Shown here: positions 3,464-64,000 of the stretch, piece by piece
Layout of the letters: each line of letters begins with the position of its first letter
Numbering within the stretch: the first letter of the stretch is position 1
NCBI GenBank assembly: GCA_937890485.1
Contig: CALBXN010000010.1
Span: forward strand, 1,178-65,177
Reading direction: 5' to 3'
Source of the DNA: an uncultured Treponema sp.
Lineage (GTDB): Bacteria > Spirochaetota > Spirochaetia > Treponematales > Treponemataceae
DNA length: 64,000 nt
Made by a program: the position numbers and the translations under genes
The notes under the pieces: generated by a model
Told to the model about the DNA's origin: nothing
Databases searched by the model: none
Seen by the model: only the letters and a program-made list of their open reading frames with translations

Positions 3464-4090
3464 GTGAGAATTTTGAACTACTGTATTAAAAACAATAAGA
3501 ATGTGTACATAAAACTGGATGAAAATGGAACGCCCGTTACTTGCGTAAAGAGTGTGAGAGGAAAATTTGAACACTCTAAAGCACAAAACATATTAAACAA
3601 TTTACCAAAATCATTAAAAACTATGCATTTTAAATTGCAAGCAATACCAGACATAGTTCCGAAAGAAGAAAAGAAAACGATTAAAAAGAAGATAGAAGAT
3701 AGAGATAAATATATTGTATCTGAAGATATAAGTCGTTGGGTGGATAAGTTTGGTAAATGCGCAGATATTCTTCAAGAAGCGAAGAGCCGTCAAGATGAAT
3801 TAATCAAAGAATTACATAACAAAGATAAAAAAATATTAGATATTTTACATATTATTGAAATCGAAAAACCAAAGGACTTGTATAAAGGTTGGTTGTTGTA
3901 TAAAGAAATACGTGCTAACAGAAAAGAGAGAAGACTTATTAAAGATGAGCTGTTAATTGTTGGGAATGTTTTACAAGAAATAAATCCTTCTTGTTTACAG
4001 AGAGACAGAATTCAACGAGCAATTGATGGATTATATACAAGAGAATATACATTCAGGATTGTAGATGATGAAAATATTAATAACGAATAA
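3464..4090 (+). CDS. hypothetical protein (208 aa, coiled-coil rich)
   Basis: GTG start after GAGGAAAGAAG. First gene downstream of the tRNAs. Confidence 0.6.
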   Translation: MRILNYCIKNNKNVYIKLDENGTPVTCVKSVRGKFEHSKAQNILNNLPKSLKTMHFKLQAIPDIVPKEEKKTIKKKIEDRDKYIVSEDISRWVDKFGKCADILQEAKSRQDELIKELHNKDKKILDILHIIEIEKPKDLYKGWLLYKEIRANRKERRLIKDELLIVGNVLQEINPSCLQRDRIQRAIDGLYTREYTFRIVDDENINNE

Positions 4091-4119
4091 GCCAAGTAAT
4101 TTCATCAAATATTATCCCC

Positions 4120-4317
4120 ATGAAGATATTAATTGGAGAAATATTATATAAGAGAAAAATTTCATATAGGCAGTTGTCTATTATGACAGGTATACCAAAA
4201 TCCACAATAGCAGATATATGCAACGGATTAACAGTACCAAGAATTGACACTTTAGAAACAATTGCAAAAGCATTGAATGTGCGTATTTCAGACTTATTTG
4301 ATAGTGATTTTAAATAA
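4120..4317 (+). CDS. XRE-family HTH transcriptional regulator
   Basis: ISYRQLSIMTGIPKSTIADICNG..PRIDTLETIAKALNVRISDLF. No obvious SD. Confidence 0.75.
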   Translation: MKILIGEILYKRKISYRQLSIMTGIPKSTIADICNGLTVPRIDTLETIAKALNVRISDLFDSDFK

Positions 4318-4494
4318 GTGTCCGAGTATTCGGACGATTATGTGGAAACACGTAAGATTGAAAAAATTGAATCGTATTTACTGTGAGAGGAGGAAAGTAA
4401 GGATAAGAATTGGACATGCGTCTAATTAATGTGCAAAAGATAAAGTTCAAATGGAGAAGTTAAAAATAAACAATTTATACGGGGTGTATGCATT

Positions 4495-5121
4495 ATGGGA
4501 GTGAAGAATTACACATTAGACGAAAGAATTTTATTAAATGAAAAATTACAACCTTACTTGGAACCTTATTATGAAAACGATGGTAAGAAACTCGTAAAGT
4601 TAGTAGATGAAATTCTCATGAGATTAAAGTATTACGATGTGGCAAAAGATGAATTTGTTTCGTTAGCTGACGAAATAATTGTAAATGCAATGTACGATTA
4701 CGATTTTAAACAGGATTTTAATGGTTACATCTACAGATGTTTGCAAAACAAATTTAAAACTGAGATGACCAGACGCAATCGTTATAAAAGACAAGCTGAT
4801 AGAATGGCTCTTTCATTGGAAGAAAAAGTCGGGAATGATGATAAAAACGTGACAATTGGCGAGTTAATAGCTGATAAAAAGACTGTTGAGAGTGAAATTT
4901 TTAAAGAAAAAAAGGAAGAATGGAGAAGAGAAGTTAAAGAGTATCTTGAAAAATTATCTCCACTCCAAAGAAAAATAGCATTTCTTATGTCTGATAATAA
5001 TACACCTGACGAGATATGCGAGGAATTACATATAACAATGAAACATTTTGAGAATTCTTTAAAAAGAATATTGTCAGATGAAAGAATTAAAATACTTAGA
5101 CCGATAGTAGAAAGGAATTAA
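4495..5121 (+). CDS. sigma-70 family-like RNA polymerase sigma factor
   Basis: Region-4-like HTH LSPLQRKIAFLMSDNNTPDEICEELHITMKHFENSLKRI and a region-2-like segment FNGYIYRCLQNKFKTEMTRRNR. Confidence 0.6.
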   Translation: MGVKNYTLDERILLNEKLQPYLEPYYENDGKKLVKLVDEILMRLKYYDVAKDEFVSLADEIIVNAMYDYDFKQDFNGYIYRCLQNKFKTEMTRRNRYKRQADRMALSLEEKVGNDDKNVTIGELIADKKTVESEIFKEKKEEWRREVKEYLEKLSPLQRKIAFLMSDNNTPDEICEELHITMKHFENSLKRILSDERIKILRPIVERN

Positions 5122-16430: not shown

Positions 16431-16442
16431 GAGGTGGATAAT

Positions 16443-16907
16443 ATGGGATTTATATATAGACTTACAGATTTAACTGATAAAGAGAAGAAATATGTTGGTA
16501 TTATTCATACTAAAAATAGAACTTTAAAAGAAAGAATTGAAGAACATTTAAAAAAGGATTCATGGTGTTGGTCATCCCCTTATATGGTCGAATATATTGA
16601 AGATGATTTTAGTAGAACTGATGCAGAATATATTGAGTCACATCTGATAAATTTATATCAAACAGATAAATACTATAATCGAAGTAAAGCAAAATGGGGC
16701 ATTTCAAGGTATATATCAGATTTAGAAGATAAATGGCAATATTATGATGTAATTAATGCACATCTTTTGGAGAAAGAATTAGAGATATTGAAAAACAGAG
16801 TAAAAGAATTAGATAAACAAAATTCTTTCTACTTAGAAATATTGAATTACATAAAGACACAAGATAAACAAATCAAAATGTTTAAACATATATGCATGTC
16901 AAATTAA
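16443..16907 (+). CDS. GIY-YIG-like nuclease (paralog 1 of 2), probable free-standing homing endonuclease
   Basis: MGFIYRL...KKYVGII..R.LKERIEEH...AEYIESHLI; paralogous to 42290-43033. SD GAGGTGG before ATG 16443. Confidence 0.5.
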   Translation: MGFIYRLTDLTDKEKKYVGIIHTKNRTLKERIEEHLKKDSWCWSSPYMVEYIEDDFSRTDAEYIESHLINLYQTDKYYNRSKAKWGISRYISDLEDKWQYYDVINAHLLEKELEILKNRVKELDKQNSFYLEILNYIKTQDKQIKMFKHICMSN

Positions 16908-17348
16908 ATTTGGTCGTTGAACAAAGATAAAGTTGCTAAGACAATAGAGACTCTACAACATGGAACGAGTGGGATACCAACACATTAAACTATGGCGAAA
17001 TCCATGAGAGGTTTGCAGTAGGTGAGAAGCCTTGCACGACCAAAAAGAGAATAATTAAATAAGCACTCTGAAAAGTTTGGCGACCTACAGAGTGCTTACA
17101 CACATAACACAACACGAAAATCGCAAAGGATAAACGTATTGCTTACATATATTATACCAATTCTTTTAGCATTATTCAATGCGATTTTCCAAACAACTAT
17201 ATATAGTGGTTGATACTCTAAATATATACAATATGTAGACTTAAAACCACCATAGAATACTGCTTTTATGGCAGAAATTATTACATATCAAAGATAGGAG
17301 GAAAAGAGGTTTGAACGTTCACTAAATTGCAATTTACTCCTATAAAGA

Positions 17349-18026
17349 TTGGAAAGAAAAATTGAACAGATAACACATGAATTGGCATTAGAGTTTATCA
17401 TGCCAAAGCATTACGCAGGAAGAAAACCACAAGTAACAAAAGCATTTGGATGGTATGAAGATGACGAATTGGTTGCTGTTTGCACATTTGGTAAACCAGC
17501 TTCACCTCAATTATGTGATGGGATTTGTGGTAAAGAGTTTTCATCAAGCGTTTATGAGTTAAACAGATTGGTGAGGATAGAAGATTTTGATGGTCAGTTG
17601 AGTCAATTTATTGCAGGTTGTCTCAGAGAATTGAAGAAAGAAAATTGGATAGTTATTTCTTATGCTGATTCTGGAATGACACATCATGGTTACATATATC
17701 AAGCGAGTAATTTTCTATACACTGGTTGTACAAAACAGAGGACAGATAGGTATGTAGAAGGTAAACATTCAAGACATGCAGATTTTGATAACCCTAAAGG
17801 AATTAGGCAAGTGAGAACTGCAAAACATAGATATGTTTATTTTTGCACATCTGACAAGAAGTTGAAACGACAGTGGAAAGAAGCACTGAACTATCCGATT
17901 TTGCCTTACCCAAAGGGCGATAATGAGAATTATGAGTTGGGTAGGGTATATTCACAGGTATTAATTGACAAAGACAAGAACATTATACATAGAGAAAACG
18001 AATATGTAATGAAAATTACTACATAA
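17349..18026 (+). CDS. Mom-like (acyltransferase-fold) DNA modification protein
   Basis: A.EFI..HYAGR.P....FG.Y.D.ELVAVCTFGKP...YELNRL...ISYADSG..HHGYIYQASNF is the pattern I associate with the Mom family. TTG start without an SD. Confidence 0.5.
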   Translation: MERKIEQITHELALEFIMPKHYAGRKPQVTKAFGWYEDDELVAVCTFGKPASPQLCDGICGKEFSSSVYELNRLVRIEDFDGQLSQFIAGCLRELKKENWIVISYADSGMTHHGYIYQASNFLYTGCTKQRTDRYVEGKHSRHADFDNPKGIRQVRTAKHRYVYFCTSDKKLKRQWKEALNYPILPYPKGDNENYELGRVYSQVLIDKDKNIIHRENEYVMKITT

Positions 18027-18166
18027 AACGGCAATAGAAAAAGTGTTTTATCGAGATTTTTAACAACTAAATAGAGAAGTAATAAGTGAAAAATAAATCA
18101 GAAAGGATAAAAGTTAGGGTAGCTACTAAGGACATGTCACCTTTCTGGTGAAAAGTTATTAAGTAT

Positions 18167-18920: not shown

Positions 18921-19661
18921 ATGAAAGACATCGAATTATGGAATGGAGATTGCCTTGAGCTGATGTCAAATATTCCTGATAAATCGGTTGATATGATTTT
19001 CACAGACTTACCTTATGGAACGACTAACTGTAAATGGGATTCTATCATTCCTTTGGACGAGTTATGGGTTCATTACAAGAGAATTATTAAGGATAATGGA
19101 GCAATTTTATTATTTGCACAAACTCCGTTTGATAAGGTTTTGGGTTCTTCCAATCTGCAGATGTTGAAGTATGAGTGGATTTGGGAAAAGACACAAGCGA
19201 CTGGTCATCTTAATGCCAAGAAAATGCCTATGAAAGCACACGAAAATATCTTGGTATTTTACAAGAAGTTGCCTACATATAACCCACAAATGACTGAAGG
19301 ACATACACCAATTCACTCATATACCAAGTATGTTTCTACTCAGAATAACACTGAAATTTATGGAAGAATGAATAGAGAGATTAGTGGCGGTGGAGAAACT
19401 ACAAGATATCCAAGAAGTGTACTTACATACGCAAGCGATAAGCAGACTTGTTACTTGCATCCGACACAGAAGCCGTTGGCTCTATGCGAATATATGATTA
19501 AGACATACACAAACGAGGGTGATTTAGTAGTCGATTCTTGTATGGGTTCAGGAACTTGTGGTGTTGCAGCTAAGAAATTAGGCAGAAAATTCATAGGTAT
19601 TGAAAAAGAACCGCAATATTTTGAAATTTCTAAAAACAGAATACAAGATATAGTGGTATAA
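18921..19661 (+). CDS. N4/N6 DNA methyltransferase (N6_N4_Mtase family)
   Basis: DMIFTDLPYG catalytic motif, HPTQKP, and VVDSCMGSGTCGVAAKKLGRKFIGIE AdoMet-binding motif. ATG 18921 overlaps the previous stop (TAATATG). Confidence 0.85.
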   Translation: MKDIELWNGDCLELMSNIPDKSVDMIFTDLPYGTTNCKWDSIIPLDELWVHYKRIIKDNGAILLFAQTPFDKVLGSSNLQMLKYEWIWEKTQATGHLNAKKMPMKAHENILVFYKKLPTYNPQMTEGHTPIHSYTKYVSTQNNTEIYGRMNREISGGGETTRYPRSVLTYASDKQTCYLHPTQKPLALCEYMIKTYTNEGDLVVDSCMGSGTCGVAAKKLGRKFIGIEKEPQYFEISKNRIQDIVV

Positions 19662-19728
19662 GTAAATAAAAACACAATATATAGATTAAAAATGCCGATA
19701 AATTCCGCATTTTAAGGAGAGTGAGAAA

Positions 19729-33036: not shown

Positions 33037-33465
33037 GTGAGTATATGGGAATGGTATCATCATTATAATAAAGAGTTAAAAAGTATTAATAAGACAAAAA
33101 GAGAATATGGATATGCGTTTTTAGGTACATTGAAGATTGGTTTTTGGTTTGGTGTATTTACCGATGTAATGATGTTATTTTCAGTAATGACATTGCCTTT
33201 GCTCAATCTTATTTTTAATGATGATATGAAACCAACGGAAGATATTATTGAAATGTTTATAGGAACGCCAATATGTGCCTTATGTATGTTTATGATAATT
33301 ACTTTTGTTTCAATGATAATTCGTCCAAAAACATTAAAAATGTATGGTAGTGAATCAAAAAATGAATTTCTTAATATCATGGTTGGTGGATTTGACGGAT
33401 GGTTTCAAGTATGTGTTTTTACAGGAGTTAGTAAAAAAGACAGAAATAAGTTTGAAAAACGGTAA
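33037..33465 (+). CDS. integral membrane protein (about 3 TM helices)
   Basis: GTG 33037 follows GGAGGTGAT. Hydrophobic segments FWFGVFTDVMMLFSVMTLPLL and ICALCMFMIITFVSMII. Confidence 0.6.
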   Translation: MSIWEWYHHYNKELKSINKTKREYGYAFLGTLKIGFWFGVFTDVMMLFSVMTLPLLNLIFNDDMKPTEDIIEMFIGTPICALCMFMIITFVSMIIRPKTLKMYGSESKNEFLNIMVGGFDGWFQVCVFTGVSKKDRNKFEKR

Positions 33466-41751: not shown

Positions 41752-42067
41752 TTATATACCAAACATAGAAGATATTTATAAAGATAGAACACTTTATGTT
41801 AAAGACATGGAAACATATTTAGAAAAGTTAAAGAAAGAAAAGGAGAATAAAACTATGAGCAACACAGCAAATTTAGGAAAGAGTTTAACAGAAACATTAA
41901 AAGAAGGGATGAAAAATTTCGCTGATTGGGCAAATGCAATGACCACATTATTAAATAGTGGCGATGAGTTAAATAACAATATTGAAACAATCAAGGAATT
42001 TGATTCCGCATTAACAGATTTAAAGAAGGTTAGTGAAGAAACAGTAAAAGCTGCAACAGAAAAATAG
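41744..42067 (+). CDS. hypothetical protein (107 aa)
   Basis: ATG 41744 overlaps the upstream stop (ATGAGTAA). An alternative in-frame ATG lies at 41729. Confidence 0.55.
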   Translation: MSNYIPNIEDIYKDRTLYVKDMETYLEKLKKEKENKTMSNTANLGKSLTETLKEGMKNFADWANAMTTLLNSGDELNNNIETIKEFDSALTDLKKVSEETVKAATEK

Positions 42068-42080
42068 AAGCATATAATAA

Positions 42081-42135
42081 GAGAACTTGTTGTCTCTATA
42101 TAGTTGGCGATTATATTTGCGAACAACAAGTTCTC
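42081..42135. terminator. long hairpin (12-13 bp stem), possible bidirectional terminator
   Basis: GAGAACTTGTTG...CAACAAGTTCTC. There is no clean U-tract on the + strand. Confidence 0.4.
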
Positions 42136-42289
42136 AACTTACAAAATGGAATAATCCAGATTGTTATTCTGATTATAACAATTCTAAATGACTTATTCAA
42201 GTCAGATTATCCGTTAAAAAGAGAATATAAGAAAAGGAGGCGTGAAGTGTCATGACTGAAAAATTGCAATGCTTCCTTAAATTACAAAA

Positions 42290-59617: not shown

Positions 59618-59659
59618 CTATATATAGTGGTGCAGACACAAAATAACCACTATATATAG
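59618..59659. repeat. perfect 14-bp inverted repeat CTATATATAGTGGT / ACCACTATATATAG
   Basis: 14-nt loop and no U-tract. The 14-mer recurs exactly at 17197-17210. Confidence 0.7.
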
Positions 59660-62758: not shown

Positions 62759-63190
62759 ATGAAAGCGAATATTATGAGAAAGAAAAGACAAAACAAAAAT
62801 TATACTTCTGTCAATCACAGTAAGTTCATTCTTACATACCATATTATATTTACCTGTAAGTATAGAAAGAAACTTCTCATAAAATATGGAGAAGATATAA
62901 AGCAGATGATTTATGATATAAGCAAGAAATACGACTTTGAAATTAAGGAAATGGAAGTTGATAAAGACCATATACATATGATGGTTTCTTCTATACCGAA
63001 AATATCACCACTTCAAATAGTGAGGATACTGAAACAACAGTCTGCAATGGAAATATGGAAAATGTATCCAAAGGAACTGAAAAAACATTATTGGAAAGAA
63101 CATACATTTTGGACAGACGGATATTTCGTTTCAACAATTGGAGAAGTAAGTAATAAGACATTAAAACATTATATACAAAATCAAGGATAG
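62759..63190 (+). CDS. tnpA: IS200/IS605 Y1 (HUH) transposase TnpA
   Basis: YHIIFTCKYRKKLL, HUH motif DHIHMMV, and the catalytic Tyr region WTDGYFVSTIG. An alternative ATG lies at 62774. Confidence 0.9.
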   Translation: MKANIMRKKRQNKNYTSVNHSKFILTYHIIFTCKYRKKLLIKYGEDIKQMIYDISKKYDFEIKEMEVDKDHIHMMVSSIPKISPLQIVRILKQQSAMEIWKMYPKELKKHYWKEHTFWTDGYFVSTIGEVSNKTLKHYIQNQG

Positions 63191-63202
63191 GAGGTGAGAC
63201 GG

Positions 63203-64000
63203 ATGAAAGTTGTTAATCGTGGTTATAAGTTTAAAATCATTCCGACACAAGAACAAAAAGACTTCTTTTTGCAGTCATTCGGCTGTGCAAGAAAAATCTA
63301 TAATCTTTATGTGAACGAATTGTATGAAAAACTTGAAAAGTCAGGTTATCAGAATGGACTGATAAAGAAATCTGATTTGCATTTGAGCAAATACACTGAT
63401 TTTGTAAAAGAATATGAATTTATGAAAAAAGTGGATTCGCAATGTTTATCAAGTGCAAAGATGGATTTTAATAATGCAATTCAGAAATTTAATACTGAAT
63501 ATGATAGGAAGACTTATACAAAAAGAAGTAGAAAAAGAGAAAAGACATTAGGCATTAAACCCACTTTTAAGGACTTGAAGGGTATGCCGAATTTTAAAAG
63601 CATAAAGAAAAATAATTTTTCGTACAGAACATACAATCAGTCTTGTGGCGGGAAATGGAATTTAATCACGCTTGTCGATTTAATGTTGAAAATCCCAAAA
63701 GTAAAAACCATGATTAAAGTCAAACAACACCGACCACTTCCTGATGGCTGTATTATTAAAAACTGTACTATTTCAATGGACGGCAAAGGTATATTTTATG
63801 CAAGCCTCTGTGTTGAATATGAAATAGAGGAAAAACAGACACCATCCAATAAGGTTCTCGGACTTGATTATTCCCAGCATGATTTTTATGTGGACAGCAA
63901 TGGTAAGAAAGCCAATTACCCACATTACTACAGAAAATCAGAAGAAAAACTGAAGAAACTGCAAAAAGAATTATCAAGAAAAGAATTAAAATCAAACAAT
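63203..64000 (+). CDS. tnpB: TnpB (IS605 OrfB, RuvC-like RNA-guided nuclease family), 3' partial
   Basis: Hand-translated; open for 266 codons to the window edge. YKFKIIPTQEQKDFFLQSFGCARKIYN N-terminus and the RuvC-I motif VLGLDYS. SD GGAGGTGAG. Confidence 0.85.
   Translation, partial: MKVVNRGYKFKIIPTQEQKDFFLQSFGCARKIYNLYVNELYEKLEKSGYQNGLIKKSDLHLSKYTDFVKEYEFMKKVDSQCLSSAKMDFNNAIQKFNTEYDRKTYTKRSRKREKTLGIKPTFKDLKGMPNFKSIKKNNFSYRTYNQSCGGKWNLITLVDLMLKIPKVKTMIKVKQHRPLPDGCIIKNCTISMDGKGIFYASLCVEYEIEEKQTPSNKVLGLDYSQHDFYVDSNGKKANYPHYYRKSEEKLKKLQKELSRKELKSNN

Follow-up and report, generated by a model that had tools for sequence, protein, structure and literature searches.

The window analyzed here is a 64,000-nucleotide (nt) stretch of contig CALBXN010000010.1 (positions 1,178 to 65,177, forward strand; assembly GCA_937890485.1, assigned to an uncultured Treponema sp.). 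It represents a phage contig with 33% G+C that was binned with a 2.8-Mb metagenome-assembled genome (MAG). Between a small GIY-YIG gene and a Mom-like gene on its plus strand lies a gap of 440 nt, with an HD hydrolase-like gene, a D12 Dam-like methyltransferase gene, and an N6_N4 methyltransferase gene as further neighbors. The original prediction for this DNA had read the gap as a structured leader or riboregulator of the Mom-like gene, or as an independent noncoding RNA. Conserved structured RNA elements do exist here and the last segment is a leader tied to DNA-modification genes, but Mom has no single leader or riboregulator of 440 nt, and the two upstream elements (A and B) are independent of it. 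The gap is probably a mosaic of three independently conserved noncoding elements in the accessory (anti-restriction) early region of an uncultured gut phage, a view that rests on their conservation and covariation, on gene association, and on a slot in which Mom has taken the place of a methyltransferase. Only the last ~60 of the 440 nt are likely to control the Mom-like gene. The coordinates of all features are collected in Table 1.

Table 1. Features in and around the 440-nt gap, with positions counted from the first letter of the window
Feature	Position	Strand	Description
GIY-YIG gene	16434..16907	+	157 amino acids (aa), coiled-coil C-terminus; Pfam GIY-YIG E = 1.2e-5
Element A	16909..17044	+	covariance model R1, 132 bits, E = 9e-20, over the full model
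Element A, P1	16911-16917 with 17036-17042, extending to 16909 with 17044		closing helix, 7 bp in the alignment
Element A, P2	16920-16922 with 16932-16934		3 bp, loop AAAGAUAAA
Element A, P5	17015-17035		conserved 3' hairpin
T-rich terminator tract (A-rich on +)	17045..17060	-	from alignments; in L106 a 99-aa ORF ends in these bases (last codons ..KENN*)
Hairpin B	17061..17097	-	10- to 12-bp stem, 17-nt loop with conserved TTTGGCGAsC; read as a terminator
Predicted sRNA-B, ~100 nt	17045..17144	-	5' hairpin, UG-rich linker, terminator; ends inferred
Sigma-A-type promoter	17151..17179	-	TTGAAT, 17 nt, TGgTATAAT; 10/12 hexamer positions plus TG extension
Long-range helix (third stem)	GAAAATCGCA 17116-17125 with TGCGATTTTC 17180-17189	+	encloses the antisense promoter together with a questionable 24-codon ORF
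Palindrome ACAACTATATATAGTGGT	17193..17210	.	genome-specific intergenic motif; not in L106
Stop-to-start dyad cassette copy	17252..17270	+	second match (<=3 mismatches) at 33465; not in L106
Element C	17289..17348	+	covariance model R2, 63 bits, E = 1.7e-16; single copy in window and assembly
Element C, P1	AUAGGAG 17294-17300 with CUCCUAU 17337-17343		5' strand overlaps the SD AGGAGG 17296-17301
Element C, junction			AAAAGAGGU; family form RAGAGGUUUG
Element C, P2	17312-17321		palindrome UGAACGUUCA; overlaps mini-ORF start UUG 17311
Element C, P3	17324-17335		palindrome AAAUUGCAAUUU; family form AAA..UUU
Mom-like gene	17349..18026	+	TTG start, no own SD; Pfam Mom E = 9.9e-32; PHROG 1384 E = 2.9e-55
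Downstream slot flank	18032..18056	+	CAATAGAAAAAGTGTTTTATCGAGA; 25 nt, identical to L106 3963-3987 just past its methyltransferase gene

What had been noticed in the gap from the sequence was confirmed on inspection. The three pairings are exact, joining TTTGGTCGT (16909 to 16917) to ACGACCAAA (17036 to 17044), AAGCACTCTG (17061 to 17070) to CAGAGTGCTT (17088 to 17097) in a 10-bp hairpin, and GAAAATCGC (17116 to 17124) to GCGATTTTC (17181 to 17189); the last of these helices is longer than first claimed, with 10 bp. The 14-mer CTATATATAGTGGT (17197 to 17210), the Shine-Dalgarno (SD) sequence AGGAGG, and a 4-codon mini-open reading frame (mini-ORF), TTG AAC GTT CAC TAA (17311 to 17325), also lie where they had been placed. 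No plus-strand ORF of ≥30 aa occurs within 16908 to 17348, so the gap is gene-free as described, and an alternative genetic code was ruled out by the presence of TAA, TAG, and TGA in each of the six frames. It is, as claimed, the longest gap between plus-strand ORFs on a crude ORF map of the window, the sole larger one (63190 to 63637) being a TnpB gene that extends past the window end. The 521 nt from 16900 to 17420 folded at -105 kcal/mol, compared to -87 ± 5.8 kcal/mol for shuffled sequences (z = -3.1; 0/100 shuffles), and each of the three stems is seen again in homologous sequences, with compensatory changes.

The gap splits into modules when the window is aligned with the related phage contigs L106, L107, and L090. 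Over the HD and GIY-YIG genes, L106 and L107 are 79% identical to the window at the nucleotide level, and the GIY-YIG homologs share 77% (L106/L107) and 62% (L090) identity with that of the window. L106, the closest relative, shows the order GIY-YIG gene, a 165-nt version of element A, a 99-aa ORF, hairpin B with ~110 nt, the SD/anti-SD segment (element C), and an N6_N4 methyltransferase gene, with no Mom gene in the slot; L107 shares this order of modules. Its hairpin B and the ~110 nt are 89% identical to positions 17043 to 17193 of the window. In L090, hairpin B stands directly behind the GIY-YIG gene and element A is missing. The 99-aa ORF between element A and hairpin B (2496 to 2795 in L106, 1638 to 1937 in L107) has two transmembrane segments and no Pfam family; the window lacks it and keeps its last codons as the A-rich tract at 17045 to 17060.

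Element C, directly in front of the Mom-like gene, belongs to a large family of leaders. A scan of IMG/VR with the pattern AGAGGTTTG-N15-45-TTTACTCCTA gave at least 113 contigs, and all true matches also have an upstream GGAG motif that was absent from the search pattern. Here and below, collections were scanned with exact patterns only, family sizes are minimum values with a bias toward the search patterns, and related phage contigs are non-independent observations. The consensus order is GGAG(G)(U/A)AA, (A)GAGGUUUG, P2, 2 to 4 nt, P3 (AAA...UUU), ACUCCUA, 6 to 9 nt (mostly 7, in 36 distinct relatives), and the start codon. Among 37 distinct versions, the start is ATG in 25 and TTG in 12, and none has an SD of its own. 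The window copy shows the whole set of family features, namely, the SD/anti-SD helix P1, the junction with P2 and P3, the start spacing without an SD, and a DNA-modification gene behind it: TTG 17349 lies 5 nt outside the hairpin and 6 nt past CUCCUA, and the SD is 47 nt upstream. The conserved UUG, 9 nt past the SD, is itself inside P2.

Across loci, the covariance model R2 had 68 matches, divergent second copies included. In 65 distinct sequences P2 was paired in 100% and P3 in 95%, compensatory change was seen in 8 of 12 pairs, and none of 500 shuffles reached the covariation score. P1 was paired in 71%, a lower score that arises because the SD sits in two registers; it appears in every minimum-free-energy fold and covaries in divergent copies (AAAGGAA:UUCCUUU and GGAGCAA:UUGCUCU) while remaining SD-like. 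In most versions P2 and P3 are palindromic through their centers, with a loop of 0 nt in ~20 of 22 distinct P2 and ~21 of 28 distinct P3 sequences. Departures from complementarity are always T·G and never A·C, and it is A or G that stands opposite the conserved UUU.

In nearly every case the leader is followed by a gene for a DNA methyltransferase or another DNA-modification protein, comprising D12 Dam, N6_N4, fused SNF2 plus N6_N4, and C5 methyltransferases, PAPS-reductase-like proteins, and radical SAM enzymes. The exceptions are one NUMOD4-HNH endonuclease and, in the largest phage group (~58 kb), a 203-aa double zinc-ribbon protein. Only in the window does the leader precede Mom; R2 had no match at 80 other Mom loci and none in 150 host-family genomes. 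A sigma-A promoter inside the leader was rejected, the -10-like TTTACT lacking the essential A2. We also discarded the idea that the palindrome centers are recognition sites of the downstream methyltransferase, since the same palindromes precede different enzyme classes. The ~58-kb phages carry a second, divergent leader with P1 AAAGGAA:UUCCUUU (L156, at 3908 to 4540, L173, L164, L165, L250, L191, L176, L196, and L146), which precedes a NUMOD4-HNH homing endonuclease in L156 and an N6_N4 methyltransferase in L173.

The Mom-like gene does lack both an SD and an ATG, as the original prediction had it, and TTG 17349 is its true start: positions 3 to 202 of the Pfam Mom profile align to residues 4 to 189 of the protein, and the closest Mom homolog in IMG/VR (L002, 71% identity) begins at the same residue, there with AGGAG-N7-ATG. 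The slot is bounded on both sides by identical sequence, holding Mom in the window and a methyltransferase in L106, from which we conclude that Mom replaced a methyltransferase in a conserved slot and in the process lost the SD-ATG present in its relatives. Because the flanks are conserved on both sides, element C, as judged from these alignments, is apparently also the point at which modification genes are swapped.

Element A, at the other end of the gap, belongs to a structured RNA family. A 30-nt block of it is identical in the window and L106, and a 20-mer taken from this block as scan pattern matched four viral contigs, nine true metagenome contigs, and one Clostridiales MAG; two further metagenome matches were dismissed as GC-rich chance matches. 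In all matches the 20-mer is the 3' part of a 130- to 200-nt element with an end-to-end closing helix. The scans together with covariance model R1 gave 14 distinct members, the window and 13 others. Every family feature is present in the window: P1, a 3-bp P2 that carries the loop RAAGAUAWA, a block AAGAnAAUA, and, stacked on P1, the 3' hairpin GCAGUAGGUGAGAAGCCUUGC. In the 14-sequence alignment (A3), P1 and P2 are paired in 100% of the cells with eight pairs changed on both sides, and the covariation score was 0.42, against 0.11 for shuffles (0/500) and ≤0.06 for slid partners. P1 occurs as GGTCGT/ACGACC, GGCGGT/ACCGCC, GGTGGT/ACCACC, GGCCGT/ACGGTC, and CTCAGT/ACTGAG, and the G·U pairs in P1 and P5 are compatible with the plus strand only. 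Two architectures with optional inserted hairpins were found, a short one (the window, L118, L125, L130, and L128) and a longer one.

By R1, element A is single copy both in the window and in the whole assembly, and each phage record searched has one strong copy, with an additional weak second candidate (E = 0.03) in one record; in 100 other loci R1 gave no match, and none near other Mom genes. The element is always intergenic and on the coding strand, mostly 0 to 18 nt past a stop codon (the two exceptions are at 52 nt and ~310 nt). The genes downstream are unrelated to each other (small membrane proteins, a dUTPase, and others) and never Mom, which speaks against both a riboswitch serving one gene class and a tie to Mom. 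Identification as a group I or II intron, a tRNA-like element, a riboswitch, or a ribozyme was dropped, as neither Rfam nor ARAGORN supported it. Element A would be a stable RNA domain closed by P1 and cotranscribed with the upstream gene; it would either be released from the operon transcript by processing or serve there as an insulator or processing site. In L126, the sequence upstream of element A is shared with L120 and that downstream with L115, which places the element at a recombination junction of phage lineages.

For element B, the minus strand gives the best reading. Hairpin B has no U run behind it on the plus strand; on the minus strand it is followed by a U-rich tail (AUUUAAUUAUUCUCUUUUU), T-rich in 7/7 homologs, and ~50 nt upstream of it on that strand lies a promoter. 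The elements of this promoter (TTGAAT or TTGATT, 17 nt, and TGnTAWAMT, with TATAAT, TAAAAT, or TATACT as -10) are kept in 7/7 homologs, and in L106, L090, L113, L114, L130, and L125 the hexamers, the 17-nt spacing, and the TG persist despite differing spacer sequences. The nucleotide identity of hairpin B is 87.5%, versus 62% amino acid identity for the adjacent gene (L090 comparison), and the stem covaries in L130 (GTAGATAGCCTG/CAGGCTATCTAC), L125, and L218. The predicted small RNA (sRNA-B) folds at -29.8 kcal/mol (z = -5.3, 0/200 shuffles). Covariance model R3 found one strong copy in the window (109 bits) and homologs in L106, L090, L113, L114, L130, L125, and L218. Separately, a weak second match to R3 was seen in the window at 42058 to 42171 on the minus strand (24 bits, E = 0.025). 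In the window, L106, L113, L114, and L218, element C is preceded by element B in antisense orientation. The small RNA would be fully complementary to plus-strand read-through arriving from the upstream genes and would uncouple or destabilize it, so that the modification slot would not be expressed from the upstream operon. No trans targets of sRNA-B or of the loops of element A were found within the window.

The third stem is uninterrupted over 9 to 10 bp in three versions, that of the window and L106, that of L130 (GGGAATAATC/GATTATTCCC), and that of L125 (GAAAGTCAC/GTGATTTTC); it is missing from L090, L113, and L114. The hairpin B loop is inverted in L125 (reverse complement, ~1420 to 1470) and L218 (6470 to 6520), with TCACCGACCAAAGCTT versus AAAAGTTTGGCGACCTA, and the orientation of the flanks is unchanged; the conserved loop motif thus occurs in either orientation. 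The loop at 17075 to 17086 (UUUGGCGACC) also resembles both P1 strands of element A (UUUGGUCGU and ACGACCAAA), and an interaction or a common origin of the two is possible, going by this resemblance.

Other readings of the gap have to be weighed against the mosaic. That the Mom-like gene has a single structured mRNA leader or riboregulator spanning all 440 nt, which a Com-like factor would open in the manner of phage Mu, is very unlikely. The strong structure of the region, a Mom gene without SD and ATG, and the SD/anti-SD hairpin directly upstream of its start would all fit such a leader, but in other phages element A is found without B, B without A, and either of them without Mom, a protein gene separates the two in L106, and element B is best read on the opposite strand. 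Moreover, neither blastn nor nhmmer found any similarity to the gap upstream of 80 other Mom-like genes, and the gap holds no com-like ORF. Less probable still is that the gap is decayed coding sequence or a functionless deletion scar. Such a scar is suggested by the absence from the window of the 99-aa ORF that L106 has between A and B, of which only the last codons are kept. On the other hand, tblastx of the gap against the 80 Mom loci found nothing, every module is better conserved than the genes on either side, as the figures for hairpin B illustrate, and the modules show compensatory changes.

For the segment 17045 to 17213, we considered a pair resembling a type I toxin-antitoxin system, in which the antisense RNA would cover, and the third stem enclose, the ribosome-binding site of a small hydrophobic peptide starting at TTG 17139. 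This is improbable. An SD-like AAAGGA does lie 8 nt before TTG 17139, hydrophobic ORFs of 22 to 26 codons occupy the same place in L090, L113, and L114, the 5' end of the predicted antisense RNA overlaps the start codon, and the long-range helix encloses the translation start. However, the ORF (TTG 17139 to TGA 17213) has only 9 codons in L130 and is frameshifted in L106, its SD in L125 is 15 nt from the start, its substitutions show no obvious synonymous bias, and its conserved residues (II, LFN, or LIK) are the antisense -10 and -35 hexamers read in frame. The 24-codon ORF is thus not the conserved small hydrophobic ORF expected of a type I toxin. The explanation that comes closest to challenging the RNA reading of leader C is that it works mainly at the DNA level, its palindromes and flanks being protein-binding or recombination sites that bound exchangeable cassettes and the SD/anti-SD pairing being secondary. 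We doubt that this is its main role, and we regard a DNA-level swap-point role as a live and non-exclusive rival. It would account for the zero loops of most P2 and P3 versions, the weak predicted energies of the RNA hairpins, the presence of the same leader before more than 10 unrelated gene families, and the identical flanks around different genes in the window and L106. Against it, the palindrome sequences differ widely among close relatives, which is unexpected for one binding protein; the mismatches are confined to T·G, with A or G opposite the conserved UUU; P1 covaries and stays SD-like; and the fixed distance of 6 to 9 nt to the start codon points to translation. No recombinase was consistently nearby, though without systematic examination.

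Several observations also count against the mosaic of three RNA elements and the roles proposed for them. The fold energies of leader C are not better than those of shuffles (z from -1.8 to +0.2), and an RNA hairpin needs no palindromic center, so that a DNA-level role as operator or recombination site is conceivable. The mini-ORF ends at -33, -27, -9, +1, +20, +32, or +50 relative to the main start, and no single coupling geometry can explain translation; as a conserved coupling device the mini-ORF was ruled out by its unconserved length and stop position. The invariance of P5 in element A is partly by construction, 20 of its nucleotides being the search pattern; for the inner helices of the element, the best native helix averages 4.9 bp versus 4.3 bp in cross-paired controls; and any function given to it is a guess. 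For element B, a loop of 17 nt, with a small inner helix, is atypical of a terminator, and a terminator consensus scan does not list hairpin B. The small RNA, its ends, and the operon read-through it would oppose are predictions from sequence, and the duplex energies of sRNA-B with leader C were not better than those of shuffles, with no significant pairing in trans.

With these points in mind, the mosaic reading gives the following picture of leader C, in which we infer what is transcribed, which way regulation runs, and how ribosomes enter. It would be a portable module of ~60 nt and the real leader of the Mom-like gene. P1 would pair the only SD with an anti-SD 5 to 9 nt upstream of an SD-less, often UUG, start codon, so that the folded leader would hide the only ribosome entry site and the potentially harmful DNA-modifying enzyme would be made at a low or gated level. 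Opening of P1 would let ribosomes load at the SD and the UUG mini-ORF and reach the main start by reinitiation or hand-over. A bolder proposal, for which we have rather little confidence, goes further on two counts: leader C may be a new portable translation-initiation device, a three-helix RNA that hides the only SD and the UUG mini-ORF start and hands ribosomes to an SD-less, often UUG, start at a fixed 7 nt behind the anti-SD, perhaps in response to a signal such as S-adenosylmethionine (SAM), a phage protein, or the adjacent antisense RNA, and element A may be a new class of functional RNA (a ribozyme or a protein-binding RNA) occurring once per genome in a clade of gut phages.

Phage methyltransferases and Mom-type enzymes decide survival of host restriction, and the control of their expression is little known. 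A leader that takes the place of the normal ribosome-binding site and, in over a hundred phage contigs, is common to Mom, to PAPS-reductase-like and radical SAM enzymes, and to methyltransferases of at least three unrelated classes suggests a shared, undescribed mechanism of control and exchange. The same gap yields a candidate structured RNA family with strong covariation and a candidate gene for a small antisense RNA that travels with the leader. For annotation, this means that three separate functional noncoding units can sit in a long, seemingly "empty" gap of a tightly packed phage genome.

The Rfam scan proposed as a check in the original prediction was run on the gap and produced nothing credible, the best hit being STnc130 with 22.6 bits against a gathering threshold of 55; over the window, only two tRNAs passed in Rfam 15. 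The same release gave no match to element C and none to element A, at E values up to 10 for the window copy and up to 1 for four other members. Literature searches by sequence strings and keywords returned nothing relevant to the elements, including the conserved 14-mer of element A. Among deposited phage genomes, the Mom coding part was the only portion of the region with megablast or blastn matches, and elements A plus B and element C had none; DNA matches in 400 host-family genomes were at chance level only, and exact-protein look-ups of the window proteins found none on record.

Two short repeats have copies in the gap. The motif ACnACTATATATAGTGGT occurs as one overlapping palindrome (17193 to 17210) and as two inverted pairs 13 to 14 nt apart (19644 to 19684 and 59618 to 59659, with copies starting at 19644/19671 and 59618/59646). 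Its 14-mer has six matches at ≤2 mismatches versus 0.54 expected, and each site lies 45 to 140 nt upstream of a plus-strand gene; the motif may be a phage-specific promoter or operator. The other is the stop-to-start dyad cassette, which recurs in this phage. Regarding the neighboring genes, the GIY-YIG protein consists of the catalytic domain and a coiled coil only, with no recognizable DNA-binding domain of homing endonucleases, and its relative P0003 carries a fused helix-turn-helix domain instead. Far downstream, a TnpB (IS605 OrfB) gene on the plus strand (63203 to 64000) runs off the window (Pfam HTH_OrfB_IS605, E = 6.6e-13, plus OrfB_IS605); it is an RNA-guided nuclease gene located on a phage contig, with its omega RNA expected past the end of the window.

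Several known systems resemble parts of this locus. In phage Mu, mom is controlled by the zinc finger protein Com and a translation-inhibition structure. As at Mu com-mom, a Mom-family enzyme with an unusual translation start is preceded here by an mRNA hairpin, and restraint of a potentially harmful enzyme is a plausible logic in both. The analogy drawn in the original prediction nevertheless fails, since no com gene is present (no plus-strand ORF of ≥30 aa in the gap) and the hairpin pairs a distant SD with an anti-SD and does not hide the SD and start of mom itself; furthermore, the leader family otherwise precedes methyltransferases and is not found at 80 other Mom loci. The SAM-III (SMK box) riboswitch and RNA thermometers are leaders that sequester the SD. 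Leader C shares with them an SD/anti-SD helix at a helix junction just upstream of the start and conserved junction nucleotides, but its polarity is reversed, with the anti-SD beside the start and the SD ~47 nt upstream before a UUG mini-ORF, and it has no known ligand, no Rfam match, and hairpins that are perfect palindromes. Genes 38 and 25 of phage T4 have split ribosome-binding sites in which a hairpin brings SD and start together. There too the only SD is far upstream of the start with folded hairpins between, whereas the T4 SD is single stranded and that of leader C is paired with the anti-SD in every predicted fold, and even with P2 and P3 looped out SD and start are still >20 nt apart.

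As an exchange site, leader C can be set beside the PeSL (promoter-early stem-loop) cassettes of T4-type phages and the attI/attC sites of integrons, which are short structured boundaries of exchangeable accessory genes. The slot behind leader C likewise has identical flanks around different genes; it differs in that neither an integrase nor an evident sigma-70 promoter is found in the leader and in that the leader is tied to one functional gene class and to a translation start. The candidate small RNA recalls the cis-antisense RNAs of Firmicute type I antitoxins such as RatA and SR4, which have an extended -10 promoter and an intrinsic terminator. Like them, sRNA-B would be an opposite-strand RNA of ~100 nt with a strong promoter and a terminator hairpin, overlapping a small hydrophobic ORF and the end of an upstream gene; unlike them, it faces an unconserved candidate toxin ORF, and it has a long terminator loop, a loop motif that occurs in either orientation, and no Rfam match. 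Element A, finally, is most like the orphan gut and phage motifs in Rfam (Gut-1 and Clostridiales-1 to -3), which are likewise intergenic RNAs in which a closing helix and covarying stems go together with invariant loops and variable insertions at the periphery.

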